Shown here one piece after another: positions 14,514 through 55,083 of a stretch of DNA of 59,520 nt. Made by a program: the position numbers and the translations under genes. Position 1 is the stretch's first letter. Each line of letters opens with the position of its first letter. Origin of the DNA: Candidatus Saccharimonadales bacterium (lineage in GTDB: Bacteria > Patescibacteriota > Microgenomatia > Woykebacterales > RBG-16-39-9b); the NCBI GenBank assembly GCA_035480955.1, contig DATIHF010000071.1:1-59520 (forward strand), in the 5' to 3' direction. Below the pieces are notes generated by a model that saw only the letters and a list, made by a program, of their open reading frames with translations, did no database searches and was not told where the DNA came from.

Positions 14514-14587
14514 TGGAGGCGTCGAGGGGAATTGAACCCCTGTAAAAGGTTTTGCAGACCTCTACCTAGCCACTCGGTCACGACGCC
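14514..14587 (-). tRNA. tRNA-Cys (GCA), CCA encoded
   Basis: Minus strand reads GGCGTCG..ACC-GAGTGGCTA-GGT..GAGGT-CTGCAAA-ACCTT..AGGGG-TTCAATT-CCCCT-CGACGCC-T-CCA. The cloverleaf folds by eye with a 3-bp D stem. Confidence 0.85.
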
Positions 14588-22098: not shown

Positions 22099-24177
22099 AT
22101 GGACAAAAGCTACGACCGCAAAAAGGTTGAAGAAAAATGGTACTCCTTTTGGGACGAACAGGGCTATTTTAAAGCCGATCCAAACTCTGATAAGCCAAAA
22201 TATTCTCTTTTGATTCCCCCACCCAATCTCACTGGTGAGCTTCATCTCGGCCATGCCATGCAGCACTCAATACTTGATGCTCTCGCCCGCTACAAAAGAA
22301 TGAGCGGTCACGACGTCCTCCTTTTACCCGGGGTCGATCACGCGGGTATTCAATTTGAGGCGGCTTTCGAAAAAAAGTTGTCCAAAGAAGGTCTCTCCAA
22401 ACAAAAACTCGGTCGTGAAGAGTGGCTCAAAAAAGCTTGGGGTTTTAAAGAAGAAGTCTATACTAGTGTTTCCAAAACCTGGCGCTTCCTCGGACTCTCC
22501 GCTGACTGGTCCCGAGAGGTTTTTACCCTCGATGAAGGTCCAAGGAAAGCAGTTTTTGAAGAATTCAAAACTTACTTTGATAAAGATTTGATTTACAAAG
22601 GCCCTTACATCGTGGTCTGGTGTCCCAAAGACCAAACGGCGATCGAAGATGTCGAGGTCGAATACGAAGAGAGAGCGGAAAAGCTCTACTATCTCAAGTA
22701 CGGTCCCCTGACTCTGGCAACGGCTCGGCCCGAAACCAAATTTGGCGACACTGCAGTAGCCGTGCATCCAGACGATAAACGCTTCCAAGAGTATGTTGGT
22801 AAAGAAATCGAGATCGAAACTCTCTCTGGCAAGAAAAAAATGCAAGTCATCGCCGACACTGCAGTTGACCCGAAATTTGGTACCGGAGTGATCAAAGTAA
22901 CTCCAGGACATGACTTTACCGACTACGAGATCGGCCAACGTCACAATTTACCAATCATTCAGGTTATAGACAAGACTGGTCGACTCACAGAGGTTGCGGG
23001 CAAATACGCCGGCATGAAAGTCGCCGAAGCTCGTGAAGCAATGCTGCCGGAGTTGCGGGAAAAAGGCATTTTGGTCAAAGAAGAAGATTACACTCACAAT
23101 GTCGCTGTTTGTGAACGCTGCAAGAGTGTCGTGGAGCCCATTATTTCCGAAGAATGGTTCGTCAAAGTTAGGGAAATGGCCAAAGAAGCTGTTCAACTCA
23201 TTAAAGAAGACGAAATCACTTTTTTACCAAAAAATTACGAGAAAATTTTGGTGGAGTGGCTCGAAAATATTCACGACTGGTGTATCTCTCGCTCTCTCTG
23301 GTGGGGACACCGCATCCCAGTTTGGTATAAAGACAAAGAAATGAAGGTTTCTCAAGATTCTCCTGGTGAGGGTTGGGTTCAGGATGAGCAAGTACTGGAC
23401 ACTTGGTTCTCTTCTGGCCTGTGGCCTTTTTCGACTTTGGGTTGGCCAGAGAAAAGTACTGAGCTTGAAAAATACTTCCCCTGGGATTTTGAGATCAGTG
23501 CTCCGGAGATTAAATATCTCTGGATTGCGCGTATGGTCATGCTCAGCAAATATTTCACTGATCAAGTTCCTTTCAAAACCATGTTTTTCCACGGCATGTT
23601 GCGAGATCTGGAAGGGCGTAAGTTTTCCAAATCTTTGGGCAATGGCATTGATCCCAACTATTTGATTGAAAATTGGGGGGTGGATGCCACCCGCATGGCG
23701 CTCTACTCCTACTCAGTCCCGGGACGAGACGGGAGAGTTTCTAAACAAATTCTCGATGAGCGAGGAAAAAACTTCCGCAATTTCGAAACCAAACTAAGAA
23801 ATATCGCTCACTACGTCATTGAGCTAAAACCAGAAGGATCTAACGAAAAGTTAGATTTTAAAAATGAAGACGACGCGTGGATCAAAAAAGAACTTGAGAC
23901 TACTATTAATAATGTAAGCGCCAATATTGATTCACTTAATCTACATCTGGCGACTGAAGAGATTTACAATTTCGTCTGGCACAAGCTTGCTGATGTTTAT
24001 CTAGAAAAAACTAAAGAGCGTCGAGCGGAGGCGCAACCAATACTAGAATATGTATTAGAGTCTTCTTTAAAACTTCTCCATCCTTTCATGCCTTTTGTCA
24101 CGGAAGAGCTCTGGCAGAGCCTACCTAACAAAAAAGGTGAATCCATCACGATCTCCCTTTGGCCAAAAAACCCTTAA
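22099..24177 (+). CDS. valS: Valyl-tRNA synthetase, short form (692 aa, no C-terminal coiled coil)
   Basis: PPPNLTGELHLGHA (HIGH motif), KFSKSLGN (KMSKS motif), LLHPFMPFVTEELWQ. Confidence 0.9.
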   Translation: MDKSYDRKKVEEKWYSFWDEQGYFKADPNSDKPKYSLLIPPPNLTGELHLGHAMQHSILDALARYKRMSGHDVLLLPGVDHAGIQFEAAFEKKLSKEGLSKQKLGREEWLKKAWGFKEEVYTSVSKTWRFLGLSADWSREVFTLDEGPRKAVFEEFKTYFDKDLIYKGPYIVVWCPKDQTAIEDVEVEYEERAEKLYYLKYGPLTLATARPETKFGDTAVAVHPDDKRFQEYVGKEIEIETLSGKKKMQVIADTAVDPKFGTGVIKVTPGHDFTDYEIGQRHNLPIIQVIDKTGRLTEVAGKYAGMKVAEAREAMLPELREKGILVKEEDYTHNVAVCERCKSVVEPIISEEWFVKVREMAKEAVQLIKEDEITFLPKNYEKILVEWLENIHDWCISRSLWWGHRIPVWYKDKEMKVSQDSPGEGWVQDEQVLDTWFSSGLWPFSTLGWPEKSTELEKYFPWDFEISAPEIKYLWIARMVMLSKYFTDQVPFKTMFFHGMLRDLEGRKFSKSLGNGIDPNYLIENWGVDATRMALYSYSVPGRDGRVSKQILDERGKNFRNFETKLRNIAHYVIELKPEGSNEKLDFKNEDDAWIKKELETTINNVSANIDSLNLHLATEEIYNFVWHKLADVYLEKTKERRAEAQPILEYVLESSLKLLHPFMPFVTEELWQSLPNKKGESITISLWPKNP

Positions 24178-24233
24178 AAACGCAAACGGGACAGATCCGA
24201 GAGTGTTCCGAAGAACAAACCCGAACCTGCCCC
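24178..24233 (-). terminator. Strand-specific terminator closing cassette C
   Basis: Minus-strand RNA: GGGGCAGGUUCGGG pairs with CUCGGAUCUGUCCC as a 14-bp stem with 4 G-U pairs (these become A-C mismatches on the plus strand). Apical GUUC-UUCG-GAAC, followed by GUUUGCGUUUUU. Confidence 0.65.
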
Positions 24234-24246
24234 CTTGCACACTGTG

Positions 24247-24798
24247 TTAGTTGCCCGAACTTCCGTAGCCGTAGTTAATGGACCGCAGGGCCTGGTGGTA
24301 GTCGAACGCCCGATTGCTCCGCCGTCTGAACCGCTGAGTTACCGTGTGCGGCAGAGGGTCGAAGGCTCGGTCGATGTCGGCGTCGAACCCGCGGGTCGAG
24401 GTTTCGAACCAAGATCCGTTGAGCTTACGCTCCACAGCCCATCCCAGCCATAACTCGCTGGCCAGATGGGCAAACACTCCTGGCTTCTCGTCGACGAGCA
24501 TCTGGTTGATGCGCTCGTTGACCACCTTCGGCCAAGAAACCCTACTCAACCGCCGGTTGATCTCGCGGAGGATGGGCCTGCGGACAATGTCCATGCTGAG
24601 CCCCGTCAAACGAGAGAGCCGGTCGGCGCGCTCGCGAGGGCTTGGGTAATATTCGCCCAAGACCTCACGCAATCTGCTGCGTAACCCCTCCTGCTCCTCC
24701 TGGCTGACGAAGTCGTAGTTCGCCCGAATCCAAGGGCGGATACGCCGCTGGAAACGCGTCTCAATCGACTGGTCTTCGGCTTCGTGATCCATGACCAT
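24247..24798 (-). CDS. Hypothetical protein, 183 aa (orphan, Arg/Trp-rich)
   Basis: Track ORF with AAAGGA 7 nt upstream. No family motif recognised. LSRLTGLSMDIVRR could be an HTH (weak). Confidence 0.6.
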   Translation of the reverse strand: MVMDHEAEDQSIETRFQRRIRPWIRANYDFVSQEEQEGLRSRLREVLGEYYPSPRERADRLSRLTGLSMDIVRRPILREINRRLSRVSWPKVVNERINQMLVDEKPGVFAHLASELWLGWAVERKLNGSWFETSTRGFDADIDRAFDPLPHTVTQRFRRRSNRAFDYHQALRSINYGYGSSGN

Positions 24799-24827
24799 TT
24801 TTAATTCCTTTCAGTGTGCATCGGTCA

Positions 24828-24886
24828 TTTAACCTTGATGGTTAAAGATCCGCTTAAGAAAACGAGGTTGCCCTCATTTGCTTAAG
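24828..24886 (-). promoter_or_regulatory. Leader module 1 (HP1 CTTAAG-framed hairpin plus HP2)
   Basis: Minus strand: CTTAAGCAAAT-GAGG-gcaa-CCTC-GTTTTCTTAAG (24853-24886), then TTTAACC-atcaa-GGTTAAA (24828-24846). HP1 starts 88 nt before the ATG at 24798. Confidence 0.5.
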
Positions 24887-24938
24887 ATTAGGTGACGCAA
24901 CTGGTTGTTGCGGCACCCGGGGCGCTGTCGGTGAAAGA

Positions 24939-25061
24939 CTACGCCCTCTTTGGCAGTTTGATGATGATTTCAGTACGCTTGCTTCGCTTCCGAAACGCGT
25001 CCCAGAGTGTTGCGTCTTGGAAGTTAAGGACGTAGCGCTCGAGATTCACCCATTCGGGCAT
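24939..25061 (-). CDS. Candidate micro-protein, 40 aa (MPEWVNLERYVLNFQDATLWDAFRKRSKRTEIIIKLPKRA)
   Basis: AGGAGG with an 8-nt spacer, then ATG, beginning 20 nt after the hydrolase stop. Below the track cutoff. Confidence 0.35.
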   Translation of the reverse strand: MPEWVNLERYVLNFQDATLWDAFRKRSKRTEIIIKLPKRA

Positions 25062-25080
25062 CTGCCTTACCTCCTTTCTG

Positions 25081-25794
25081 TCAGTTCAACAACGACTCGA
25101 TGATGCTCGCTGCTCTTTCCGGCTCTAGGATGATCCAATCATGACCTGCATTGCGAACGATTACCGGATCCTGCCGAAGCGCTCTCCGCATCTCCCAGCA
25201 GTTTGGGAAATACTCATCGTCGTCCGACCAAACCAAGTCTATTGGAACCTCGACTAGTTTGATCTGCCTGACCACGTCACTCTGAGTCGTGATCTGAAAC
25301 GCTTCCCACATCCAGAACGGATGAAGCAAGCTGTTGCGGACGAAACTCAGCACGATCTGAAGCGCTTTCACTTTGTTGCGGCCGAAATTACGCCGGTTCT
25401 TTCTTAGGGCCGCACCTAACCAACCGATGAGGCTGCGATTCACTTTCTCCCCAGCGATAGAGTTGGCAACTATTTTGCCAAACCTCTCCGGAAAAACTAC
25501 GACCCAGCGCAAAGCGACCAAACCACCCATCGAATGGGCGACGATGTCAACTCTGCCCCAACCATACTTTTCCGCGAGCTCTTCCAGTGCGCTCACGATC
25601 TGCCATCCATCGCCCAAACCATTGAGGTCCGGGATGACAACGAGGTGACTCTTCGCGAGCTCCTCTCCCAGATCCTCGTACAGGCTCGGACTCATTCCTA
25701 GGCCATGCAAAAGGACCACAGTGCTATCGTGTTCAGTCCCCGCGAGGAGATAGTGAACACGAGTACTGCCGACCAGATCACTGCAGTGCTTCAC
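25081..25794 (-). CDS. Alpha/beta-fold hydrolase, 237 aa
   Basis: LLHGLG (oxyanion hole), AHSMGG (nucleophile elbow), WSDDDEY, AGHDW. The GTG at 25794 is preceded by AAGGAGG with a 6-nt spacer. The track ATG at 25905 has no RBS and would read through leader module 2. Confidence 0.8.
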   Translation of the reverse strand: MKHCSDLVGSTRVHYLLAGTEHDSTVVLLHGLGMSPSLYEDLGEELAKSHLVVIPDLNGLGDGWQIVSALEELAEKYGWGRVDIVAHSMGGLVALRWVVVFPERFGKIVANSIAGEKVNRSLIGWLGAALRKNRRNFGRNKVKALQIVLSFVRNSLLHPFWMWEAFQITTQSDVVRQIKLVEVPIDLVWSDDDEYFPNCWEMRRALRQDPVIVRNAGHDWIILEPERAASIIESLLN

Positions 25795-25819
25795 GCTCTC
25801 CCTCCTTAGGGATACAAAA

Positions 25820-25875
25820 GCTCGATTCTCGAGCCTCCGCTTAAGAAAACCAACAGTAAAGTTGATTTGCTTAAG
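25820..25875 (-). promoter_or_regulatory. Leader module 2 (HP1 plus HP2)
   Basis: Minus strand: CTTAAGCAAAT-CAAC-tttact-GTTG-GTTTTCTTAAG (25840-25875), then GCTCGA-gaa-TCGAGC (25820-25834). HP1 starts 81 nt before the GTG at 25794. Confidence 0.5.
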
Positions 25876-26126
25876 GGGAATGTTCTTCTGGGAAGAACTC
25901 AGCATGCAGATTGCATACCTAAAAGCCCCTTCTTCTCTATTGTGGGATACCTCTGAAATCTGGCTGATTCCCTAGGTGCCTATGGATCATGCGTAAAGTT
26001 GGCTCCCAACAACCAACAATCACTCCCCATAGGTCTCAGGCTTTTTTTCGTTGTCCTGCCAACGACTTTGCTTTTACCCCAGCAGTATTTTCTGGGAACT
26101 AACCGGATGTTAGCTTTTGCCTGAAG

Positions 26127-26687
26127 CTAGAACAGACCGCGCAGTTTTTGCTCTGCGGCTGCACGCACGAGATCCCTCAGAGATTCCCATTCATCTGAGT
26201 CTGATATCATGCTTTGAAGTACGTCGACGGCCATGAAACGTACCCTTGTTTCGGCCGACTCATCTTCAGCAACAGCCTTGAGGGCTGCTTGATCCGACTT
26301 GATCTTCTCGATCGCCAGCCCATCGGCCAACGCGCTCTGGGCCGCTTCGCTAGCATAATCCAACGCGTTTTGGGAAACCTTTTCGAGTGCTTCCCTGGCG
26401 TGCGGGATCTCGACATGCTCGGATAATTCGTCCGCGGCCATCTCGCGAAGATCCGTGGGACGGTTGGGATCGAGTAGAACCTCGATCGCTCCTTCCATTG
26501 TGCGGATAGGCTCGAGGTACTTCCTCAACTTTTCGCCGTCCAGGTCACGGTTCATGCATTGCATGCAACCCATGACATGTTTGTCAACCTCCTGCAAGTC
26601 CTCTGGCAGGGTGTCGTCTGGTCCCAAAGCAGCTAGTTCCCTTTCATGGAAGAGCCGCCTCAGCACCTCTGCGTTTGGGTGTTCCAT
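26127..26687 (-). CDS. Cytoplasmic protein with an N-terminal ZAS-type (H-x3-C-x2-C) zinc motif and a HEAT-like helical C-terminus
   Basis: H14...H37-VMG-C41-MQ-C44. The C-terminal helical repeats (e.g. ETRVRFMAVDVLQ) resemble HEAT/PBS-lyase repeats. RBS AAGGAG. No TM segment. Confidence 0.55.
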   Translation of the reverse strand: MEHPNAEVLRRLFHERELAALGPDDTLPEDLQEVDKHVMGCMQCMNRDLDGEKLRKYLEPIRTMEGAIEVLLDPNRPTDLREMAADELSEHVEIPHAREALEKVSQNALDYASEAAQSALADGLAIEKIKSDQAALKAVAEDESAETRVRFMAVDVLQSMISDSDEWESLRDLVRAAAEQKLRGLF

Positions 26688-26838
26688 TGAACTACTCCTT
26701 TATTGCAGCGAAAGCATCAGAGGAGGCTTTCAATCTCCTGTATCGAACCAAATAGCCTGCGAGAGTGGTTTTCTTGTTAGAAAACTCTCCGCTTTGGGTG
26801 GCTAGAAAATCCCGCTCAATTAGACTAGAGCTTGTCAC

Positions 26839-26872
26839 AAAACCAAACGACCTTATTCGGGACGTTTGGTTT
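26839..26872 (-). terminator. Internal hairpin/terminator overlapping the stop of the 56-aa gene
   Basis: Minus strand reads AAACCAAACG-tcccgaataaggt-CGTTTGGTTT followed by TGTG (weak U-tract). Confidence 0.45.
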
Positions 26873-27041
26873 AGAGTTGTGGCTGCTGTGCTTTTTCTAG
26901 GTTGTAGAATACAATCCCCAACCCGTAAAAAAAGCCAGCCAAGGCCGTAGCCATGATCGCAAGCGTCACGGTACCCGTGAACACCGCTACCGCTGCCACA
27001 ACCGCAGCCACCAAGGCCGCGACGAAGTATAAGGTTATCAC
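26871..27041 (-). CDS. Small hydrophobic protein, 56 aa, 2 predicted TM
   Basis: The GTG at 27041 is preceded by AAGGAGG with a 5-nt spacer. Sequence VITLYFVAALVAAVVAAVAVFTG...LAGFFYGLGIVFYNLEKAQQPQL. The track start at 27161 would run through leader module 3. Confidence 0.5.
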   Translation of the reverse strand: MITLYFVAALVAAVVAAVAVFTGTVTLAIMATALAGFFYGLGIVFYNLEKAQQPQL

Positions 27042-27063
27042 CCTAACCTCCTTTACTAAGAGT

Positions 27064-27119
27064 CCAGATTCATTTGATCCGGCCTCTCTTAAATCAACCT
27101 CTAGTGAGACTGGCTTAAG
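27064..27119 (-). promoter_or_regulatory. Leader module 3 (HP1 plus HP2)
   Basis: Minus strand: CTTAAGCCAGTCTCA-ctaga-GGTTGATTTAAG (27088-27119), then CCGGAT-CAAATGA-ATCTGG (27064-27082). HP1 starts 78 nt before the GTG at 27041. Confidence 0.5.
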
Positions 27120-27192
27120 GATTCCCGAGGGGTTGGTTGTTACTCTTTCAGTGCGTTGCACCTACTCGAACACCCTCGGGTTTCCATCAGAA

Positions 27193-27438
27193 TTAGCTCC
27201 AGATCAGCGGGATCCGAAGCTTGGGGTTCGCCAGCTTGAGGTAGACCGCGTGGTCTCCCCGAATAGCTGTCGCCTTGACGATGAAGCCTGTGCCGCTTCC
27301 TTCCTCGTAAGCAGCTGACTTCACCTGGCCGATGTTGACGTGAACTCCACTCTTCGTCAGCACGGTCAGCTCTTCTCCCAACGACGGACGCTGCGCGATG
27401 GTTCCACCGTCGATGATGACCGGCAAAACCGTGACCAT
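27193..27438 (-). CDS. Hypothetical protein, 81 aa
   Basis: The ATG at 27438 is preceded by AGGAGG with a 4-nt spacer. Sequence MVTVLPVIIDGGTIAQRPSLGEE.... The track start at 27468 lacks an RBS. Confidence 0.55.
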   Translation of the reverse strand: MVTVLPVIIDGGTIAQRPSLGEELTVLTKSGVHVNIGQVKSAAYEEGSGTGFIVKATAIRGDHAVYLKLANPKLRIPLIWS

Positions 27439-27459
27439 GGGACCTCCTGATGGATAAGC

Positions 27460-27518
27460 CACAAACAATTTAGCTTGTGCGCTCCCTTAAATCAGCCTCA
27501 GATTGAGACTGGCTTAAG
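27460..27518 (-). promoter_or_regulatory. Leader module 4 (HP1 plus HP2)
   Basis: Minus strand: CTTAAGCCAGTCTCA-atctga-GGCTGATTTAAG (27486-27518), then CACAAGC-taaatt-GTTTGTG (27460-27479). HP1 starts 80 nt before the ATG at 27438. Confidence 0.5.
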
Positions 27519-27587
27519 GAAATTAGTTACTTTGCTAGGCAAAGAACTCGGCTTAGTTTTCCAGGCTAAGCTTGAAGAAAAGTGAAG

Positions 27588-27989
27588 TCAGTAACCCCAG
27601 GCCTTGAAGTCTCCGAAGAGCTTCAGCGCGTTGAGCAGAATCTCCTCGATCGTCAGCTTGGCGTATTCCTCGGCGGGCGTCGACGGTACAAGAGCCTCGT
27701 TGATCTGAAGTGCTTCCCCGATCCGCTCTCTTTGCGTCTCACAGAGGTCAATCATGAGGTCCACATCGTAGGGGTAGCCTTCGTTACCCTTCCTGAAGTG
27801 GTAGGTGACCGCTTCAGTAAGACGGAATCGGAAGTATACCTCTGCCACGAACATGAACGAATCGACCGGCACCTGCCACATGAACTGCTCGCCTAGCGCG
27901 TGGACCAGTTTGGCCCATTCTATCTCCCCAGACTCAGCTTGGCGTACCAAGTTTCGTGCCTGGACAATCCTATCGACTTCCTTTGACAT
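27588..27989 (-). CDS. Hypothetical protein, 133 aa
   Basis: The ATG at 27989 is preceded by AAGGAG with a 6-nt spacer (track start 28007). No motif recognised. Confidence 0.6.
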   Translation of the reverse strand: MSKEVDRIVQARNLVRQAESGEIEWAKLVHALGEQFMWQVPVDSFMFVAEVYFRFRLTEAVTYHFRKGNEGYPYDVDLMIDLCETQRERIGEALQINEALVPSTPAEEYAKLTIEEILLNALKLFGDFKAWGY

Positions 27990-28010
27990 TTCACACTCCT
28001 TGAGCATAGT

Positions 28011-28069
28011 TCGAGCTCATTTGGCTCAAACTCCAAAGTACTAAAAAAGCACCTGGTAACTGGCTTCAA
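28011..28069 (-). promoter_or_regulatory. Leader module 5 (degenerate HP1 plus HP2)
   Basis: Minus strand: TTGAAGCCAGTTACCAGGT (28051-28069) resembles CTTAAGCCAGTCTCA. HP2 is TTGAGC-CAAATGA-GCTCGA (28011-29), with the same loop as module 3 on a different stem. It starts 80 nt before the ATG at 27989. Confidence 0.35.
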
Positions 28070-28211
28070 ATGTATATTCTTCAGGGCAATGACTTGCAAT
28101 GACAGTTCTTTATACTTCAAACCCAGTTACTAGATGCCTTGATCTAGATAACTTGATCGCTGTGGCAGCTTCAAAAGTCAGCTGGCGATCTATTTAATTG
28201 TTAATGACAAA

Positions 28212-28240
28212 AGTATAGCACACTATCGGCCATTTGTCAA
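28212..28240 (-). promoter_or_regulatory. Extended -10 promoter (TTGACA-17-TGC-TATACT) at the edge of cassette C
   Basis: Minus strand reads gtacTTGACAaatggccgatagtgtgcTATACTttt. The -35 and -10 flanks are identical to the cassette A promoter. Confidence 0.6.
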
Positions 28241-28293
28241 GTACCACGCTACGCATAACTTAAGTATGGGAGGGTGAGGTTATGGGCCCACCC

Positions 28294-28533
28294 TCAACTG
28301 ATCTCTTCCAAAGTGTTGTCGCGACCACAGTTCGGGCACTTGGTACCACTTCGAATATTAGTCGGTTTGTGGCAAGTTCGGCATCGGTACTTATACTTCT
28401 CGGTTCCTTCTGGCCTCGGAATAGGCTTGCCAGATTCCAGCAACTTATCCAGTTCCTTCTTTCTCTCTTTACGGTCAGGCGTCCATTCGTCGAACTTATC
28501 AGGCACGCTCGAGCCTCCTTTACCCCGTACCAT
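28294..28533 (-). CDS. Small basic zinc-ribbon protein, 79 aa
   Basis: CRTC...CPNC. Followed by hairpin GAGGGTG/CACCCTC (28270-28295). Confidence 0.5.
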   Translation of the reverse strand: MVRGKGGSSVPDKFDEWTPDRKERKKELDKLLESGKPIPRPEGTEKYKYRCRTCHKPTNIRSGTKCPNCGRDNTLEEIS

Positions 28534-28582
28534 TATCTCAGGGTGGTCAAACAGAGCTATTTACTTTGCTGGGATAGGGAAT

Positions 28583-29293
28583 TTAGCCTTCTGGGGGTCC
28601 TGCTTTACTGCCTTCAGAGCTTTGATTGACTTCTTCACCTATTGGTTCTTTCTCGCCGCCCTCTTCACCCTCAGCTTTTTCAGCAGTAGCTTCAACATCC
28701 TCAGGTGAGACTTCAGGCTCGGGCTCTTCTTCTTTCATTTCCGCAGTTTGAACAGTCACCACCACCTCTTCTGGGTCGTTGGTGATCTCAACTTTGTCTT
28801 TTTCGACTTTGAGGTCTTTCACGTGCACTGCCTGGCCGACTTCGGTCAGCTTCTCCGCATCTACCTCGATACTGGAAGGAATATCAGTTGGCAAACACTC
28901 AACTTCGACTTCGTTGAGGGTTTGAAGCAATAATCCTTCTCCGCTTTTCGCAATTGGTGACTCCCCGACCAAAACTACAGGCACAGCCGTGGTGATTTTC
29001 TCTTTAAGGTTTACTTTGTGAAAATCCACGTGGATGAGGTCGTCATGGACTGGGTCTCTTTGGAGGTTGTGAATCAAGGAAGGGTAAACTTCATTTTTGA
29101 CCTTAACGTCGATCAAAGCGGTTTCCCCGGCTTCTTTGAAGGTTTTCTGAAAATCTTTGAAAGCAACTTGAACAGAGATGGACTTCACGTCCTTACCAAA
29201 AATATTGGCGGGGATCACACCTTCTCGGCGCAGCTTTTTAACTTTCTTTCCCGTTAAGGAACGCTCTTCTACATTTAATTCTGGTCTAGACAT
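28583..29293 (-). CDS. rplY: Ribosomal protein L25/Ctc form with an acidic C-terminal tail
   Basis: RSLTGKKVKKLRREGVIPANIFGK at the N-terminus. Confidence 0.85.
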   Translation of the reverse strand: MSRPELNVEERSLTGKKVKKLRREGVIPANIFGKDVKSISVQVAFKDFQKTFKEAGETALIDVKVKNEVYPSLIHNLQRDPVHDDLIHVDFHKVNLKEKITTAVPVVLVGESPIAKSGEGLLLQTLNEVEVECLPTDIPSSIEVDAEKLTEVGQAVHVKDLKVEKDKVEITNDPEEVVVTVQTAEMKEEEPEPEVSPEDVEATAEKAEGEEGGEKEPIGEEVNQSSEGSKAGPPEG

Positions 29294-36622: not shown

Positions 36623-37726
36623 ATGTTTCTAGAAAAGCTGCAACTCCTAAACTTTCGAAACCTCGCCAACCAAAAACTAGAATTCAAAAATTCCATTAAT
36701 GTAATCTATGGGGACAACGCCCAAGGAAAAACTAATCTGATCGAAGCAATTTACCTTCTTTCTGGGAGCCGCTCAATGAGAGCTAAAACAGACCACGAAC
36801 TAATTGCTTGGGGCAAAGAGAAAGCAAAAATCTCTGGTAAAGCTGACTTTTTGGATCTTGAACTCACTGTCTTCCCAAATCAGAAGAAACTCTTGATCAA
36901 TAAACAAGAAAAAAGACTAACTGATCTGATCGGTACCTTTCTAACCGTACTTTTCACGCCCGCTGAGGTTGAGATTGCTTCTGGATCGCCGGACCGGCGA
37001 CGCCGCTTTTTGGATCAGTTTGCCGCCAATCTTTCGCGAGAGTACTTAGTCTCTTTGGGCAAGTATCAAAAAGTTCTCCGCGCGCGCAATGGCCTCCTCT
37101 GGCAAATTAAAAACGGACGAGCGCATGACCTGAGCGTTTGGGATGAACAGTTGGCTACTCTTGCGGTTGAGATTTGGAAAAAAAGAGTCTCGTTAATTGA
37201 AGAGCTCAATACCGAGATAAAAACCGTGAGCCGAAAACTCCTCAGTGGGGATCTCAAGCTCTTTTACGAGCCGCCAATTGCAGTTGGTTCTACTAAAAAT
37301 ATGAGAGAGGAGTTTTTAAGACTGCTTCAAAAGAGCTCTTCTGAAGAAATAAGGAAAGCGCTCACCCAAATTGGTCCGCAAAGGGACGACTTTAAAATTA
37401 TTTTGGATTTAGAAAAAAACGACAAAATTGTTTCTAAAGACTTAGGGATCTACGGGTCACGCGGGGAGCAGCGCTCTGCGGTGATTTGCCTTAAGCTCGC
37501 GGAAATTGAGCTGCTCACCGCTGCGAAAGAAACTAGACCAACGCTTTTGCTCGACGAAGTGTTAGGCGAGCTAGATCCCAAACATCAGCAACTCTTAGTG
37601 CGCCAGATTCGTAAAGGTCAGGCTTTTTTAACTAGTGCCAACTACACTGAATTAAAAAAAATATTAGGAACCGGCTATAAAAGTTTTGAAGTGAAAGACG
37701 GAGCAATTACCCCGGTGGCTGACTAG
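36623..37726 (+). CDS. recF: DNA replication/repair protein RecF
   Basis: GDNAQGKTNLIEA (Walker A), LLLDEV (Walker B), SGGEQ-like RGEQRS. Confidence 0.9.
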   Translation: MFLEKLQLLNFRNLANQKLEFKNSINVIYGDNAQGKTNLIEAIYLLSGSRSMRAKTDHELIAWGKEKAKISGKADFLDLELTVFPNQKKLLINKQEKRLTDLIGTFLTVLFTPAEVEIASGSPDRRRRFLDQFAANLSREYLVSLGKYQKVLRARNGLLWQIKNGRAHDLSVWDEQLATLAVEIWKKRVSLIEELNTEIKTVSRKLLSGDLKLFYEPPIAVGSTKNMREEFLRLLQKSSSEEIRKALTQIGPQRDDFKIILDLEKNDKIVSKDLGIYGSRGEQRSAVICLKLAEIELLTAAKETRPTLLLDEVLGELDPKHQQLLVRQIRKGQAFLTSANYTELKKILGTGYKSFEVKDGAITPVAD

Positions 37727-39593
37727 GGGGCTGGCCCTCCGGTGGGTTCTGTGGTTCAGGGTTTTGTACCGGTTCGGGTGGTTCTTGTTGTGGTTGCTGC
37801 TGTTGCTGGGAGTTTAGCTCAGCTGGATTAGAGGTGATCAGCACATGTTCATGAGGGGCGGCCTGAACTCTGATTGCCACGTGGTTGCTGCCGGCAAAGA
37901 AAAGCCCCTCCCCAATATCCGCCGCTAACAGGAGATTTCTTTCCCCTTCCGACAAATAAAAAGTATCAACAATCTGATCCACACTGGCCGAGGACTGCTT
38001 GAGCAGAATTTGGATAGAGGAATTGGTCACGATCGCTTTACCGTAATCAGATACCAGGAAATCCTCTACGTCTTGGGTTACGGTAGTTAAACCCAGATAA
38101 TATTTCCGCGCCCTTTTTGCAATTGAGTAAACAAAAGAAGCACTGTCAGGGTGTTTCATCATATACCAAGCCTCGTCGATGATCAGAAGCCTTTTCTTGC
38201 GGTCCTTTTTAATTTTGGTCCAGATGTAATCAAGAATGATAAACATCCCGATTGGTCGTAGCTCATCTTCCAAATCACGAATAGAAAAAACTGTGAAAGT
38301 GTTTTTAATATCAATGCTTGAGGACTGATCAAAGATTCCCGCTAGTGAGCCTTTAATAAACTTCTCAATTCTCTCAGCCATGGTTCGAGCTTCTGGCTCT
38401 GCGCTGTTGAGCAAGACTTCGTAAAGATCTTCGAGCACTGGAGCAGGACGGTTTTGGGTCGCCGCGTCCGGAGTGATGCCCTTGAGTTTATAAGTGGTGA
38501 TGAGTGCGCGATCGAGTATCGCGTCTTCAGTGGCAGTTAAGTTGCCCAGAATAATTCTGAAGAGAGAGTGTAGGGAAAGAATTTTCAAGCCCAACTCGTT
38601 TTCCCCTTCAGTGTAGACACCAGAGAGATCAAAAGGGTTGATCTTGGAGCTCTCCTGACCAGAGAATTTAATGTACTCTCCTCCGATTGCGTCACAAAGA
38701 GTCTTATACTCATCTTCTGGGTCAATAATAATTATTTCTGTGCCAAGCATCAGAGAGCGCAAGGCTTCCAATTTGGTCATGTAACTTTTTCCCGCCCCGC
38801 TTTTTGCAAAAATCACACTGTTAGCGTTTTCTAGGCTGAAACGATCAAAGATGACGAGGGAGCCGTTGTGCTCGTTAATTCCGTAGAGAATCCCTTCATT
38901 GGCAGTCAGCTCTGAAGAAGTAAAAGGAAAAGTAGTTGCCAGAGAAGTGGTGTCCATGTTGCGGGTGACCAAAAGCTTATCGGTGAAAGTTGGCAGAGTC
39001 GTCTGAAAACCCATTTCCTGCTGCAGAGTAGCGTGTTTGGAGATGATCAAGAGAGAGCCAAGAGTCGACTCAATCTGTTTAGTGATAGCGTTGAGCTCTT
39101 CCAGACTTTCGGCGGGGATGGTGATATAGAAAGAAAATTGGAAAAACCTTTCGATTCCGGCGACGAGCTGCTCTTGCAAAGACTGCGCGTCCTCGAGAGC
39201 GATTCGTACGGCTGGGTCGATCACCCGCCCTTTTTCAAAGTCACCTTGAACAGTTGCCTCCATCTCGGCAATCTTCCGGCGCAAATCATCCAAAATACCC
39301 TTGGCCTCTACGGGGTAATAGTAAAAAGAAATCTCTAAGGTGTGGTCAAAGTTGATGATCGGGGCGAGCCAGTTGGCACCAACAAAACGGGGGTAGCCAC
39401 TAATAAACAAAGTCCGGTAGTAAGTCTCACCAACTCTGATGTGATCAAAATCTACCTGCAAAGCAGGGGGAGCGATAATGTCTTTTACATCAAACATTCC
39501 TCGCCCAAGAGTATTTTTAACTTTTTCACGAGTTTGGGCCAGCTCAAGATCTTCTTTAGTAGGCTGCTTTTTCTTGCCGCCGAACAAGGCCAT
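37707..39593 (-). CDS. VirB4/TrsE-family T4SS ATPase (C-terminal two-thirds)
   Basis: FAKSGAGKSY (Walker A), RLLIIDEAW (Walker B), YYRTLFISGYP block, Gln/Pro-rich tail. ATG at 39593 in a TGATG overlap with the upstream ORF (track TTG at 39596). Confidence 0.8.
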   Translation of the reverse strand: MALFGGKKKQPTKEDLELAQTREKVKNTLGRGMFDVKDIIAPPALQVDFDHIRVGETYYRTLFISGYPRFVGANWLAPIINFDHTLEISFYYYPVEAKGILDDLRRKIAEMEATVQGDFEKGRVIDPAVRIALEDAQSLQEQLVAGIERFFQFSFYITIPAESLEELNAITKQIESTLGSLLIISKHATLQQEMGFQTTLPTFTDKLLVTRNMDTTSLATTFPFTSSELTANEGILYGINEHNGSLVIFDRFSLENANSVIFAKSGAGKSYMTKLEALRSLMLGTEIIIIDPEDEYKTLCDAIGGEYIKFSGQESSKINPFDLSGVYTEGENELGLKILSLHSLFRIILGNLTATEDAILDRALITTYKLKGITPDAATQNRPAPVLEDLYEVLLNSAEPEARTMAERIEKFIKGSLAGIFDQSSSIDIKNTFTVFSIRDLEDELRPIGMFIILDYIWTKIKKDRKKRLLIIDEAWYMMKHPDSASFVYSIAKRARKYYLGLTTVTQDVEDFLVSDYGKAIVTNSSIQILLKQSSASVDQIVDTFYLSEGERNLLLAADIGEGLFFAGSNHVAIRVQAAPHEHVLITSNPAELNSQQQQQPQQEPPEPVQNPEPQNPPEGQPPSQPPG

Positions 39594-40321
39594 CAACTAC
39601 CTTGCCTTTCTTCCTGAGGAGGTGGGGTGCTATTGCCCGTTGAGGGCTGAAGTGCTGGCTCAACTATTGGAGTAGTGTACTCGGTCGTGTTGAGAGCCGC
39701 CTTCTGCTCCAAGGAAACATCAGGGTTGTAGAGATCGTAGAAAAACTCAACTAGCTCTTCAGTGGACAGCAAGTGGGCTTTAACACCTATCCTGGAGACT
39801 TGTTTGGTGAGGTGATCGACCTTTGGTCCTAGATTGGTCTTGGCTTTTTCAAGAATATGCCATTTGTCCTCGACGGGACCTTTTTTCACAAACAAACTTG
39901 GAATCGTTAAGGCCTGCTGCAGAGTCGTCCCTGCAAAAGGAATAACAATATAGAAGCGCTTGTCCAAAATTTGGTTTTGTGAGACAAGCTGTTGGATAAA
40001 ACCAGCGTATAAGCTGATTTGACGAGCAATCTGTTGGTTGGGTGTTTTTTGTTGCGCTTCGGCGAGCCGGCCTAAATAGTTGGAAATATCCATTTTTTTA
40101 GAACGTACCAAAACCTGGATTGGATAGGTCAGAGAGTTGAGCAGAGCCGCGTAAGCAAAAATCATCGCGTCTTGCTCTCTTTCCGAAAGCAGATCAAAGT
40201 TCACTGCTGAAGTTTGTAAGATGGCGATCGCATTACCGTTTTTTAGAATTACAATATTATCGCGGATATCTTCAACGTCTAGGTGTTGTTGGGTTGAGGG
40301 TAGTGGTTTTTTGGCAGCCAT
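39593..40321 (-). CDS. T4SS-associated protein resembling the N-terminal segment of Gram-positive VirB4 homologues
   Basis: The block ILQTSAVNFDLLSEREQDAMIFAYAALLNSLTYPIQVLV resembles, from memory, the 'inf.L.s..eq..i...y..fLN' block at the N-terminus of Tn916 Orf16-type VirB4 proteins. Confidence 0.45.
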   Translation of the reverse strand: MAAKKPLPSTQQHLDVEDIRDNIVILKNGNAIAILQTSAVNFDLLSEREQDAMIFAYAALLNSLTYPIQVLVRSKKMDISNYLGRLAEAQQKTPNQQIARQISLYAGFIQQLVSQNQILDKRFYIVIPFAGTTLQQALTIPSLFVKKGPVEDKWHILEKAKTNLGPKVDHLTKQVSRIGVKAHLLSTEELVEFFYDLYNPDVSLEQKAALNTTEYTTPIVEPALQPSTGNSTPPPQEERQGS

Positions 40322-40340
40322 TTTTGTTTGGAAAGCTCTC

Positions 40341-43052: not shown

Positions 43053-43669
43053 CCGCTACCCTCCCCGGCGGAACGGTTTTTCGCACTATCGACGACCTCG
43101 GCCATTCTCTGGAAACCTACAGTAGCAGGATTAAACTCTCCTTCTTTAGGTTGTAGGCTTGGAGCGGCAAAAACCTGGCTTTCGCTAGTGGCTGAGTTGA
43201 GGTTGAGGTTAGTCAGACGCCTTTCCTCGTTGATATCAAGAATACTTTTGGAAGCACCCTTGCGGTGGGTCTGCAAATAAAGCTTCAACTTACTGGGATC
43301 AGAGTAAATTTTGGGTTCCACGGCTGTCGCTTGGCGGTGCAGGTAAATCGAGAATTGAGGCTCCAAAAAGCCAATCTCTTTAGGCTCGTGGTGCCACACC
43401 CGTGTGTTCGGAGAGTAAACCGTCTTGAAAAAAGCCGCAATCCAGCGTTCAAAAGGCATATTGTTAAAACTAACAAAAGCTAAAGCGATCGCAAAGAGTC
43501 CTACTGGACCACCCACGAGCAAAACAATAGGAAAAGGTAATTTTGAAGAATAAAGAATAAAAATAAAGATCGCGGCGGCGGCTAAGTAGCCAAATTGCCG
43601 AAGGGTCAAGAAACCAATTAATTTGAACTCAAATCCAGTAATATTTTGTGGAACAGGATGGCTTTGCAT
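43049..43669 (-). CDS. PrgI/VirB3-like two-TM T4SS protein
   Basis: MQSHPVPQNITGFEFKLIGFLTLRQFGYL followed by 2 TM. Internal ATG at 43669 preferred. 4-nt overlap with the next gene. Confidence 0.5.
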   Translation of the reverse strand: MQSHPVPQNITGFEFKLIGFLTLRQFGYLAAAAIFIFILYSSKLPFPIVLLVGGPVGLFAIALAFVSFNNMPFERWIAAFFKTVYSPNTRVWHHEPKEIGFLEPQFSIYLHRQATAVEPKIYSDPSKLKLYLQTHRKGASKSILDINEERRLTNLNLNSATSESQVFAAPSLQPKEGEFNPATVGFQRMAEVVDSAKNRSAGEGSG

Positions 43670-43799
43670 AGATAGACTTTTTGGCTTTCTTTTGTGTGCA
43701 CTAATTATGCCTAAACTGTAGCTAAAAAACAACCCGTAACAAAGTGGATCAATTACCCTCTGATAAACCACTCACTGAAAGTAAATGATAGTTATAGGG

Positions 43800-43828
43800 T
43801 TGACACTAGCTTTGTTTTGTGCTAAAAT
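43800..43828 (+). promoter_or_regulatory. Extended -10 promoter (TTGACA-17-TGC-TAAAAT) heading cassette D
   Basis: gggTTGACActagctttgttttgtgcTAAAATcgc. It shares TTTTGTGCTAA with the cassette B promoter. Confidence 0.6.
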
Positions 43829-43856
43829 CGCTCAACAATTTTAAGGAGCAGTTTTT

Positions 43857-43916
43857 GTGGATAAATTGATTATTAAACTCATTAAGAAGAAGACCTCAGG
43901 AGGAATCCCGATTTAA
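43857..43916 (+). CDS. Candidate leader micro-ORF, 19 aa (MDKLIIKLIKKKTSGGIPI)
   Basis: AAGGAG with an 8-nt spacer, then GTG. The stop lies in the loop of the first leader hairpin. Confidence 0.3.
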   Translation: MDKLIIKLIKKKTSGGIPI

Positions 43917-43987
43917 ATCGGGAGGCCCAGCGAAAGCTTGGGCAGCAGGCTTCTGAGGACATTATGTCACCGGAAGCCTGTTTTTTT
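43894..43987 (+). terminator. Leader structure: three-way junction followed by an intrinsic terminator
   Basis: P1 CCTCAG (43894-99) / CTGAGG (43953-58). Hairpins TCCCGAT-ttaa-ATCGGGA (43906-23) and GCCCAGC-GAAA-GCtTGGGC (43925-43). Terminator CAGGCTTC (43946-53) / GAAGCCTG (43973-80) plus T7 (43981-87). Confidence 0.55.
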
Positions 43988-44259
43988 GTGAGTAAAAGGT
44001 ACTTTTACAAGTTAATAGCTTGTTTTGAAAGGAAAGAAACTCCTTGAGTCTCGTCTTGGGGTATTTGGGTTGAAGAAAATTCAGCCTAGCTACCCCTTGA
44101 TGAGATTGCATATTGCATTTCATCTGAGGGGTTAATCGTGCAACCATCTCCCGTGCGCTCGCTTTGCGTGCTGCTGGGAAGGTGTTTTACGGTAACCGTT
44201 TCGGGTGGTGCAAATGCACCTTAAGTCTGACGACTTTGGATCGTCAAGGAGGATCAGTT

Positions 44260-47744: not shown

Positions 47745-47783
47745 GGCCACCCAGAGGAGCAATCCAAAGGGTGGTCTTTTTTT
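47745..47783 (+). terminator. Intrinsic terminator closing cassette D
   Basis: GGCCACCC-16 nt-GGGTGGTC followed by T7. The T-run overlaps the stop of the convergent VirB6-like gene. Confidence 0.7.
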
Positions 47784-52723: not shown

Positions 52724-53131
52724 TTAGTTACTATGTATTTGGCAAAAAGTAGCCGCGTTACTGCCAACAGTAGGTAGACAAAATCTTCCTAACCCAGGAA
52801 CTTGGACAAAGCCAACGATAAGAGAAATTATCAAATAGGCGGCTAAGATCAAAATCAAACCCACAATTGCCCAAGTGAGACTGGCTCGAGCAGCCGTTAA
52901 GGCTTTTGGATCACCTTGAGCGGTAATATAAGCAATTCCTCCCCTAATCAGCATAATCAAAATTGCAAAACCAGCAAAAGTTGCAATGATAGAAGTGAGA
53001 TTGGCGAAAACTACTACTAGATCTGACAATTGGGCAAAGCCACCGGTTTCCGGGACTGTCGTTGCCGCGAGCACATTTTTAGGAAAAAGCAGAAGAAAGG
53101 AAGCAATAAGAGGGGCGAGGCGAAATTTCAT
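52724..53131 (-). CDS. T4SS pilin-like protein (TrbC/VirB2-type), paralogue 6
   Basis: Signal peptide MKFRLAPLIASFLLLFPKNVLA. Core GGIAYITAQGDPKALTAARASLTWAIVGLILILAA. Internal ATG preferred over the track start at 53164. Confidence 0.65.
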   Translation of the reverse strand: MKFRLAPLIASFLLLFPKNVLAATTVPETGGFAQLSDLVVVFANLTSIIATFAGFAILIMLIRGGIAYITAQGDPKALTAARASLTWAIVGLILILAAYLIISLIVGFVQVPGLGRFCLPTVGSNAATFCQIHSN

Positions 53132-53153
53132 GTGAACTCTACTGAACTGTTGG

Positions 53154-53576: not shown

Positions 53577-53605
53577 AACTTTTAAACAATTACAAGTGGT
53601 TTCTT

Positions 53606-55058: not shown

Positions 55059-55083
55059 AAGGACCTTCTACTTAAAAGGTTTT

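Follow-up and report, generated by a model that had tools for sequence, protein, structure and literature searches.

A conserved hairpin pair in front of the interchangeable genes of a fast-changing orphan-gene array

In a candidate-phyla bacterium, a small, fast-changing block of orphan genes carries a conserved RNA hairpin pair in front of most of its genes. Because the genes that follow these hairpins are quite different in related genomes, the pair has the look of a standard leader supplied to interchangeable genes. The analysis below covers a 59.5-kb stretch of DNA (the window, to which all positions refer) and the corresponding loci of relatives, which were located via TsaD, a gene next to the array, and via DNA patterns.

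The array and its non-coding scaffold

The array lies between L25 and aaRS-TsaD, near dnaA, and occupies the same chromosomal spot in all relatives. It is hypervariable and consists of co-oriented, mostly unrelated orphan ORFs set in a conserved non-coding scaffold of host-like GC, which comprises a promoter, a leader of ~165 nt, junction modules of two hairpins (HP1 and HP2) and an end terminator. The ORFs have a GC content of 55% and a GC3 of 62–77%, compared with 45% GC in the junctions and a GC3 of 41–54% in host genes. Homology between the arrays of relatives was confined to leader, junctions and terminator. From one relative to another the ORFs are shuffled or unrelated, gene families occupy different positions in different arrays, and one ORF family was found flanked by different modules on both sides. 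This setting, in which the ORFs change among relatives and the scaffold stays, had been overlooked in the preliminary description of the locus. In the window, the array reads as follows in the direction of transcription:

28212–28240, minus strand: sigma-70-type promoter with extended −10, TTGACA-17-TGcTATACT (11 of 12 matches)
28037–28203, minus strand: conserved leader RNA, an irregular hairpin of ~100 nt (5' arm 28140–28115, 3' arm 28070–28043) followed by a U-tract
28008–28033, minus strand: HP2-only module with loop CAAAUGA, before gene 1 (start codon 27989)
27588–27989, minus strand: gene 1, helical protein of 133 aa with a C-terminal WGY motif
27530–27572, minus strand: pair of small hairpins, a regular feature ahead of subtype-b HP1; conserved in L066 and L086
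27486–27518, minus strand: HP1 of subtype b, beginning 80 nt before the start at 27438; module score 56.9 bits
27456–27484, minus strand: HP2 before gene 2, followed by the Shine-Dalgarno (SD) sequence AGGAGG and ATG 27438
27193–27438, minus strand: gene 2, orphan ORF of 81 aa
27088–27119, minus strand: HP1 of subtype b, beginning 78 nt before the start at 27041; module score 54.9 bits
27059–27087, minus strand: HP2 with loop CAAAUGA, followed by SD and GTG 27041
26871–27041, minus strand: gene 3, predicted membrane peptide of 56 aa
26753–26820, minus strand: long-hairpin junction element ATTGAGC...TAGCC...GGCTA, here without HP1
26127–26687, minus strand: gene 4, orphan ORF of 186 aa
25840–25875, minus strand: HP1 of subtype a, closing a 330-nt spacer free of ORFs, 81 nt before the start at 25794; module score 51.4 bits
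25815–25839, minus strand: HP2 before gene 5, followed by SD and GTG 25794
25081–25794, minus strand: gene 5, alpha/beta hydrolase of 237 aa (Abhydrolase_6, E=2e-16)
24939–25061, minus strand: gene 6, ORF of 40 aa, 19 nt after gene 5 and without a module
24853–24886, minus strand: HP1 of subtype a, 88 nt before the start at 24798; module score 59.4 bits
24822–24852, minus strand: HP2 before gene 7
24247–24798, minus strand: gene 7, orphan ORF of 183 aa
24177–24236, minus strand: conserved terminator hairpin at the end of the array, which is convergent there with the aaRS gene

The promoter is the only strong sense-strand promoter of this array, and its equivalents are conserved in relatives, whose arrays have one or two each; simple scans of the window array and of relatives found no promoters within junctions. 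The leader RNA, which gave no Rfam match at E<5, is a conserved RNA separate from the hairpin pair and had previously gone unnoticed; the "degenerate HP1" reported at 28051–28069 is not HP1 and instead forms the 3' arm of the leader hairpin, paired with the 5' arm. Gene 1 belongs to a small family, a member of which sits first after the leader in several relatives.

Three junctions of the window lack HP1, namely those before 27989 (where HP2 is present), 26687 and 25061, the last of them a gap of 19 nt. Five modules had been counted earlier; four are true HP1+HP2 pairs and the fifth is the HP2-only junction before gene 1. That junction reads CTTTGGAG and represents the HP1-less form of CTTAAG[HP1]TTTAAGGAAG in the relative L079. 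Likewise, the long-hairpin junction element directly precedes HP1 in L069, L079 and L095.

Structure, covariation and distribution of the hairpin pair

The positions given for the four HP1 copies and their distances from the start codons were borne out. HP1 is 31–36 nt long and has 14–15 bp. In each of the four copies, an outer stem of 6 bp (CUUAAG/YUUAAG) is separated by a 1x1 mismatch from an inner stem of 7–8 bp with a loop of 3–6 nt. TTAAG flanks the inner hairpin on both sides as a direct repeat. HP2 starts 0–1 nt after each HP1, and its loop is often of the YAAAWG type; the two stem-loops together span ~65–75 nt. HP2 does precede the genes as described; its distance to the start codon is 17–23 nt with the stem boundaries used here, rather than the 21–29 nt claimed. 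It was also correct that modules 3 and 5, before genes 3 and 1, share the loop CAAATGA on unrelated stems, and that the T/C difference between the subtype-b copies turns the G.U pair of HP1 27088–27119 into a G-C pair in the other. Whole-module folding was far better than that of shuffled sequences for three of the four modules (z = −4.2, −3.6 and −4.1) and not for the fourth (z = −0.4). Neither a U-tract nor a promoter is present in the modules.

All seven CTTAAG sites of the cassette are intergenic, as had been noted, and account for half of the window's 14 sites. The pattern CTTAAG-N18-26-TTAAG occurs six times against 0.76 expected, a number reached in 0/100 shuffles. In subtype a the palindromic hexamers are 28–30 bp apart; in subtype b the second arm is TTTAAG, so there is no second CTTAAG. 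Intermediates between the subtypes exist.

The covariance-model scan that had been proposed yielded 31 modules in 249 kb, searched on both strands, from ~11 genomes or contigs. Every match lies on the sense strand, 30 of them in this array and one in a second mini-array. Scores were 30–72 bits on the sense strand and at most 25 bits on the antisense strand of the same sites. The array of L095, left out when the model was built, served as an independent test: it gave six sense matches, of which five lie directly before a called ORF and the sixth (4447) lies 28 nt before gene 1. In most copies, SD and start codon follow ~10–40 nt past the end of the model.

Pairing is kept while sequences change. 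In 17 arm-trimmed HP1 copies, 97.7% of the cells were paired and 6 of 13 pairs were changed on both sides; the observed cells paired, cells changed on both sides and covariation score were reached in 0/500 shuffles, and the two counts (pairs and pair types) in 5/500 and 9/500. Among the 31 model-aligned modules, 98.6% of the paired cells of HP1 and 86.7% of those of HP2 could pair, double changes occurred in 18 of 23 pairs, no shuffle equalled any measure and slid controls paired at 55% or less; this alignment was fitted to the model. The copies in these comparisons are paralogues related by phylogeny, and the counts are not equivalent to an R-scape-type test. Specific cases illustrate the compensation. 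The module at 24886–24822 has a near-twin before the last gene of L095 (6911), with two paired substitutions, GAGG/CCTC to GAGC/GTTC and AACC/GGTT to AACT/AGTT. Even within the "CTTAAG" stem, compensatory versions such as CCTAAG/TTTAGG and CTCAAG/TTTGAG are found. G.U cells outnumber A/C cells (89 versus 13), and 27/31 copies retain the U.G pair found at position 11 of HP1. The mean folding energy was −26.8 kcal/mol for the sense and −18.9 kcal/mol for the antisense strand, with the sense strand more stable in 24 of 25 copies.

The module is thus a conserved RNA-type structure composed of a basal CUUAAG stem, a 1x1 mismatch, a conserved U.G pair, a variable apical stem and a second hairpin, and in most copies it stands directly upstream of the SD and start codon of mutually unrelated genes. 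A few copies have no ORF behind them (L066 15975, and L081 14906, where a terminator comes next). Since there are HP1-less junctions as well as ORF-less modules, a gene does not require the module, nor is the module sufficient for one.

Its occurrence is restricted to arrays of this type. No HP1-HP2 matches were obtained in the Rfam, phage, plasmid and viral collections. The viral scans gave no genuine copy (three chance matches that do not fold in one, none in another), and the only matches to subtype b in the metagenome scan were four short contigs, all from this locus. A first genome scan, whose pattern excluded the commonest b form, gave chance-level matches apart from one island.

Possible role of the module and alternative explanations

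We consider it somewhat more probable than not (roughly 55%) that HP1-HP2 is an RNA module of two hairpins, specific to one strand and placed in the leaders between the cistrons of a single long mRNA. The suggestion of an RNA-level element that punctuates the operon was supported and survived every test run, including compensation in 31 copies and the strand-specific fold. One mRNA would run from the conserved strong promoter and leader RNA through the interchangeable, compositionally foreign orphan genes to the conserved terminator, and each newly acquired ORF would receive a standard, host-adapted leader from the module. We infer that the biochemical role lies in processing, in stability or in insulating translation. 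A trans-acting protein, most simply a double-strand- or hairpin-specific endoribonuclease, may recognise the conserved HP1 base; through the hairpins the polycistronic RNA would be cut or divided into units, the ends so produced would be shielded, and foreign sequence upstream would be prevented from pairing with the ribosome-binding site. Being repeated, and conserved from genome to genome, the modules probably also provide homology patches for gene gain, loss and swapping; they may serve as recombination joints too. Some observations count against this reading. RNase III substrates usually comprise about two helical turns, and HP1 with its 14–15 bp is shorter; the junctions before 27989, 26687 and 25061 work without HP1, and some modules have no ORF. 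In addition, a sense strand folding as single-stranded DNA predicts the same covariation and strand bias.

In an unlikely alternative, HP1 is an attC-like recombination site folded from single-stranded DNA and an unlinked recombinase shuffles cassettes behind a fixed promoter-leader platform. The hypervariable co-oriented array with one promoter at one fixed locus would suit it, as would the foreign composition of the ORFs against a host-like scaffold, the differing positions of gene families, a strand-specific hairpin with a conserved mismatch, the TTAAG direct repeat around the inner hairpin, and HP1-less junctions that resemble empty sites (CTT(T/A)GGAG compared with CTTAAG[..]TTTAAGGAAG). 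However, no R''/R' core pair (RYYYAAC...GTTRRRY) with pairing ends was found in any array, and scans that covered most of the larger ORFs of the window, and 10-kb flanks in relatives, showed no integrase, transposase or other recombinase. HP1 is also shorter than attC (31–36 versus 57–141 nt), and where attC has extrahelical bases it has a symmetric 1x1 mismatch. Conservation extends to HP2 and its loop, which are tied to the SD and start codon, and the ORF plus site is not the mobile unit, because the same ORF family has different modules on both sides. It is rather improbable that HP1 is a selfish element, namely a miniature palindromic insertion of the REP or MITE kind with TTAA(G) as its target and no function for the host. 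TTAAG on either side of the inner hairpin resembles a target duplication, and both HP1-less versions of the same junction and two sequence subtypes exist; yet there are no copies outside the arrays in the 249 kb, the metagenome scan led back to this locus, the orientation is always sense, HP2 co-varies and co-occurs with HP1, subtype intermediates occur, and a conserved base with a hypervariable compensated apex indicates functional constraint, not recent copying.

Two further proposals concern transcription. The put RNA of phage HK022 is a two-stem RNA, and the present module, with two stem-loops joined by 0–1 nt over ~65–75 nt and sense-strand specificity, could similarly act in processive antitermination or attenuation, re-issued for each cistron to allow read-through of terminator-like spacers; the leader hairpin and U-tract at the array start would otherwise stop transcription, and further long hairpins occur in spacers. 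Nevertheless, put sites lie once behind the promoter and not before every gene, intrinsic terminators were rare or absent between cassettes in a simple scan, comparison of sequences and with Rfam gave no similarity, and the tight link to SD and start codon would be left unexplained. We regard this proposal, too, as having a low probability. The preliminary description had also offered CTTAAG pairs as DNA operators. As half-sites of a double-stranded operator, bound by a repressor that acts as a roadblock or "stoperator", they would account for the spacing of the subtype-a hexamers and for the repetition of sites along one transcription unit. This is very improbable: the second arm of subtype b and the compensated stem versions lose the hexamer, the latter retaining pairing; a strong G.U bias and a conserved U.G pair are meaningless in duplex DNA; and an operator spacer does not need a variable inner stem that stays paired. 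The sense-strand matches and model scores, strand-specific fold, kept pairing, double changes, G.U excess and conserved U.G pair speak for an RNA element within a polycistronic mRNA rather than for a DNA operator.

Comparison with known systems

Integron attC sites measure 57–141 nt and have RYYYAAC/GTTRRRY cores and extrahelical bases. The arrays resemble integrons in their co-oriented, mostly orphan ORFs at a fixed locus with one promoter, in the structured strand-specific repeats between ORFs and in a content that differs among close relatives. They differ in having neither these cores nor a nearby integrase, in the much shorter hairpin without extrahelical bases, and in that ORF and repeat do not travel as a unit.

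The RNase III sites in the early and late operons of phage T7 and REP hairpins such as malE-malF are intercistronic processing or stabilising hairpins. Here too, repeated hairpins with an internal loop lie between the cistrons of a predicted polycistronic mRNA, and copies within one genome share sequence. The present element has a shorter helix, two adjacent hairpins and a fixed distance to the start codon that follows; REPs occur throughout the genome, the modules in one array type only.

The SAS of Cluster K mycobacteriophages is a 13-bp motif overlapping the Shine-Dalgarno sequence; departures in the ESAS arms do not support RNA pairing, and the authors favour DNA binding (PMC3203893). SAS/ESAS and the present modules are alike as one-orientation repeats that immediately precede many non-structural genes unrelated to each other, and in including an inverted repeat with a variable spacer (PMC3203893). 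In contrast, the module has no conserved SD-linked 13-mer and its departures are compensatory.

PeSL (promoter-early stem-loops) of T4-type phages consist of a sigma-70 promoter and a terminator stem-loop, and are likewise short conserved non-coding cassettes flanking orphan ORFs in a hyperplastic region (PMC2839356, PMC4122927). PeSL belong to a phage genome; the present modules lie in a bacterial chromosome and, instead of a promoter or U-tract, have two covarying hairpins tied to the ribosome-binding site. In both, inter-genome homology is confined to the cassettes, which can thus act as joints for gene gain, loss and replacement.

A strand-specific two-hairpin module at the array junctions

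The junctions between the minus-strand orphan genes of the array (about 24.2–28.3 kb) carry a module of two adjoining hairpins, HP1 and HP2, followed by a Shine-Dalgarno (SD) sequence and a start codon. Four HP1 hairpins were found where the preliminary description had placed them, starting 88, 81, 78, and 80 nt before the respective start codons, and folding of these four modules confirmed that HP2 follows HP1, with 0–1 nt between them. All four have the same architecture, namely a 6-bp outer stem CUUAAG/YUUAAG, a 1x1 mismatch, an inner stem of 7–8 bp, and a short loop. The fifth, “degenerate” HP1 reported at 28051–28069 is rather part of the 3′ arm of a long hairpin whose 5′ arm is 28140–28115, and this hairpin belongs to a conserved leader RNA; gene 1, the first ORF after this leader, is preceded by HP2 alone (28033–28008). 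The junctions also exceed the extent first described: two small hairpins usually lie 5′ of HP1 subtype b, and a long ‘ATTGAGC...TAGCC...GGCTA’ hairpin was found upstream of HP1 in many junctions. All seven CTTAAG sites of the block are intergenic, as had been noted, and they represent 7 of the 14 such sites in the window. The arrangement CTTAAG-N18-26-TTAAG was observed six times against a chance expectation of 0.76.

A covariance model based on an alignment of 14 modules was used for the suggested scan for further copies. It detected 31 copies in 249 kb, with compensatory changes present, and all of them were on the sense strand although both strands were scanned. Thirty copies lay in the array locus, and the remaining one fell in L081, in a further mini-array located 3′ of groEL. 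Sense-strand sites scored 30–72 bits, whereas the antisense of those sites scored no more than 25 bits. In the array of L095, which was left out of model building, six sense matches were obtained, five directly before a called ORF and the sixth 28 nt before gene 1.

In the arm-trimmed alignment of 17 HP1 copies, which is independent of any model, 97.7% of cells were paired, and 6 of 13 pairs showed double-sided change. The observed values for paired cells, for cells with double-sided change, and for the covariation score were not attained in any of 500 shuffles; the pair and pair-type counts were attained in 5 and 9 of 500 shuffles, respectively. In the 31-module alignment, which was fitted to the model and consists of related copies, pairing was 98.6% in HP1 and 86.7% in HP2, with double-sided change in 18 of 23 pairs; no shuffle equalled any measure, and slid controls were at most 55% paired. 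A direct count on trimmed arms of the main-class HP2 (n = 11) gave 98% of cells paired, with an A/A mismatch kept. Paired substitutions separate even near-identical modules (window 24886 versus L095 6911; L079 13655 versus L085 1374). Subtypes a and b of HP1 proved to be the ends of a continuum, with intermediates in L095.

Two readings had been offered for the repeats, an RNA-level element, which was preferred, and a duplex-DNA operator. The covariation and strand specificity support the former. The operator is contradicted by the G.U bias (89 G.U cells versus 13 A/C cells), by the existence of subtype b, and by the hexamer itself: its variants CCTAAG/TTTAGG and CTCAAG/TTTGAG are compensated, so that it is pairing, not the AflII palindrome, that is kept. 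In addition, a U.G pair occupies HP1 position 11 in 27 of 31 copies, and the sense fold was the more stable one in 24 of 25 copies. The element formed by the two hairpins is strand-specific, conserved, and covarying, and the finding is real and stronger than originally described. Folding of single-stranded sense DNA would give an identical covariation and strand signature.

Orphan genes and the constant non-coding scaffold

The array and its borders include the following features:

22099–24177, plus strand: class-I aaRS gene, one border of the array
24177–24236, minus strand: terminator closing the array
25876–26126, minus strand: ORF-less spacer
27588–27989, minus strand: gene 1
28037–28203, minus strand: leader RNA
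28240–28212, minus strand: array promoter, TTGACA-17-TATACT with extended -10
28583–29293, minus strand: ribosomal protein L25 gene, the other border

The genes jag, yidC, rnpA, and dnaA are located a few kb away. The window belongs to MAG contig CAZDTU010000001.1 (GCA_964508465.1). The G+C content of the 24.2–28.3 kb block is 52–53% versus 45% in the genome. The block contains seven co-oriented ORFs (133, 81, 56, 186, 237, 40, and 183 aa), among which the 237-aa alpha/beta hydrolase was the sole family match in PADLOC, PHROGs, and Pfam. A word-indexed protein search with gene 1 returned only gene 1 itself, and a full HMMER search returned 15 representative clusters. Its predicted model, a plain helical bundle, is confident (pLDDT 86), and no structural match to it was found. 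The promoter is the only good sense-strand promoter of the block, and no enrichment of AACAATT was observed after the -10 element. The ORF-less spacer (330 nt, from gene 4 to the next HP1) contains hairpins that scanned as terminators on the opposite (plus) strand, at 26048–26065 and 26091–26107; it could represent a cassette in decay or else an antisense feature.

Loci of relatives were collected using TsaD, a conserved neighbour gene (72–83% identity), as an anchor, and the same locus was taken from other assemblies; several of these contigs stop short of the array or on reaching it, and contributed little. A DNA-pattern scan of species-representative genomes gave 60 chance-level matches and one true island, L039. 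That scan under-sampled the copies, since the IUPAC code M shut out CTAGT, the commonest form of subtype b. Its three ‘Saccharibacteria’ matches were rejected as coincidences in coding sequence. A metagenome scan for subtype b recovered four short contigs, all of this locus, and the gene-1 family led to a complete new array, L095. Of the relatives, L066 and L081 derive from Hainich groundwater.

The order TsaD, aaRS, array, L25 ... rnpA, dnaA is kept, and the ORF content between aaRS and L25 is almost wholly different from genome to genome. A few ORF families (gene 1, a CxxC family, and a ‘WEQVIW’ family) reappear at other positions. The arrays of relatives further include toxin-antitoxin pairs as well as a TetR gene and a response-regulator gene. 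The non-coding scaffold is constant, comprising the promoter, a leader of about 165 nt, the junction modules, and the closing terminator. Promoter scans of four arrays detected the leader promoter only, plus one extra promoter in L066, and none inside the junctions. Whole-array BLAST against phage and plasmid sequences gave no match; among three pattern scans of viral contigs, one gave three non-folding chance matches and two were empty.

Base composition of array and host sequences
Array ORFs: G+C 55%; GC3 62–77%
Junctions: G+C 45%; GC3 n/a
Host genes: G+C n/a; GC3 41–54%

The leader RNA forms an irregular hairpin of about 100 nt (approximately 35 pairs, two of them covarying) followed by a U-tract. 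Together with the promoter, it is 88–94% identical between relatives where TsaD is about 80% identical, and it was also found in the cassette-free locus L083. It could be an attenuator gating the array or a free-standing small RNA. No Rfam match was obtained for it: Rfam 15 at the gathering threshold detected only tRNA in the window, and at E<5 on 24100–28600 only two chance-level matches. The sole Rfam/ARAGORN match is a tRNA-Cys (GCA) at 14514–14587 on the minus strand. The closing terminator (GGGGRCAGGTTC...GAWCTGTCCC and then a U-run) recurs in L066, L069, L087, and L095; in orientation it is convergent with the aaRS gene. The aaRS gene itself shares 45–47% identity with the aaRS of relatives, which are 77–85% identical among themselves, whereas the TsaD beside it is about 80% identical to theirs; a third aaRS type is present in L069 and L074 (56–61%). 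From these sequence comparisons, the aaRS gene of the window looks replaced.

Several further loci were observed. The mini-array of L081 (3330–4270, minus strand) has a strong promoter, two orphan ORFs, and one HP1/HP2 module with the compensated stem CCTAAG/TTTAGG, and it shares a CTAGC..GGCTAG+U terminator with the array end of L079; no module was found at the equivalent position of the window. A single relative (L069 3220–4260, also L072) carries a reverse-transcriptase gene (RVT_1, 346 aa), situated between DUF72 and groEL, and no link to the array was found. The window contains a type IV secretion cluster (37707–43771 and 52724–55782) with a TraG-like ATPase, a PrgI-family protein, and five tandem T4SS-pilin genes, interleaved with large ORFs without a family match (47782–49887 and 49984–52170). 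Within this cluster, a second high-GC orphan gene (44260–47736, plus strand; GC3 0.64) encodes a protein of 1158 aa with no match in Pfam or PHROG. Its region (43800–47736, plus strand) has its own strong promoter at about 43803, a 19-aa leader ORF, a terminator hairpin at about 43945–43985, and a leader of about 430 nt. A CTTAAG site, a hairpin, and an SD sequence precede its ATG, an arrangement not scored as a module by the covariance model.

Proposed role of the modules

Most module copies are located shortly 5′ of the SD sequence and start codon of unrelated genes, and each array has only one or two promoters. HP1 is missing from some junctions, and an ORF is missing behind some modules. 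We suggest that each cistron receives a standard leader from the module, which would act within the mRNA. Processing probably occurs at a site marked by the module and leaves protective terminal hairpins; the module may also shield the ribosome-binding site against foreign upstream sequence. The conserved base of HP1, including its mismatch and U.G pair, and the often-kept HP2 loop YAAAWG look like candidate points of protein contact. Because the modules recur, are conserved from genome to genome, and form the limits of homology between arrays, a second role as gene-exchange joints, by analogy with the PeSLs of T4-type phages, is plausible.

There is a slim chance that the locus is a novel gene-capture platform of candidate-phyla (Patescibacteria-like) bacteria, with a fixed promoter, leader RNA, junction modules, and terminator, in which foreign ORFs are exchanged at HP1. 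Such a platform would be a functional analogue of the integron, unrelated to IntI/attC; the exchange enzyme would be a recombinase or an RNA/ssDNA-guided enzyme encoded elsewhere, and the hairpins would double as mRNA leaders of the captured genes.

The module is a structured RNA motif that Rfam lacks; it comes from a little-studied uncultured lineage and shows unusually clear covariation. The leader RNA beside the array is also an unclassified conserved RNA. The architecture is unusual as well: orphan genes that are interchangeable and foreign in composition sit in a conserved host-like non-coding scaffold. Should the module standardise expression, it would be a naturally occurring equivalent of the ‘insulator’ parts designed for synthetic operons and would show how reduced, host-dependent bacteria maintain expression of a fast-evolving set of accessory genes. 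If it is also an exchange joint, it would explain hot-spot turnover without visible mobile-element machinery.

Alternative explanations and comparison with known systems

An attC-like recombination site would agree with the architecture of the locus, and the array shares its locus logic with integrons. In integron attC, R″ (RYYYAAC) and R′ (GTTRRRY) pair at the hairpin base, some bases are extrahelical, and the central spacer is unpaired; the integrase, a tyrosine recombinase, and attI adjoin the array, and each ORF travels with its own attC 3′ of it. However, a search of both strands of 12 arrays by regular expression and folding found only two matches to these cores, both in L069 and with unpaired ends, and no recombinase families were detected among the window ORFs scanned, a part of the total, or in the flanks of relatives (precomputed Pfam). 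HP1 has a symmetric 1x1 mismatch instead of extrahelical bases, and the moving unit is not an ORF plus its own site, the same ORF families being flanked by different modules on either side. A selfish palindromic insertion also conflicts with the findings. REP/BIME elements have many intergenic copies genome-wide, in both orientations, and are associated with a RAYT transposase, whereas all 31 model matches in 249 kb were within arrays and in a single orientation; the metagenome scan returned this locus only, and the genome scan gave chance-level matches and one island. The conserved base and compensated apex of the modules likewise argue against such an insertion. As for a put-like antitermination RNA, the HK022 put RNA consists of two stem-loops one base apart, lies immediately behind a promoter, and acts in cis on RNA polymerase. 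The two-stem form with its 0–1-nt linker is common to both, but the module stands before each cistron, put only once behind the promoter, and known similarity is absent.

RNase III sites of the T7 type are hairpins of roughly two helical turns that contain an internal loop and are cleaved by RNase III; HP1 partly matches this form as an intercistronic hairpin with a 1x1 loop, but its helix is 14–15 bp in most copies, which is short for RNase III. The SAS of Cluster K mycobacteriophages is a 13-bp asymmetric motif 3–7 bp upstream of start codons, and the ESAS are imperfect inverted repeats of 17 bp, the deviations of which give no support to pairing at the RNA level (PMC3203893). The modules share this placement but differ in their RNA pairing, since their departures are compensatory, and no SD-linked motif is conserved across them. 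PeSL repeats carry a strong sigma-70-like early promoter in every copy; they lie on either side of ORFans in hyperplastic regions, and indels and replacements end at them (PMC2839356, PMC4122927). The array modules likewise flank ORFans and mark such ends, but the promoter is absent from the junctions of the four arrays scanned. The modules are of a known general kind, repeated intercistronic RNA hairpins flanking orphan genes in a hyperplastic locus, and, judged by analogy of behaviour, their closest counterparts are PeSL cassettes together with intercistronic processing and stabilising hairpins.
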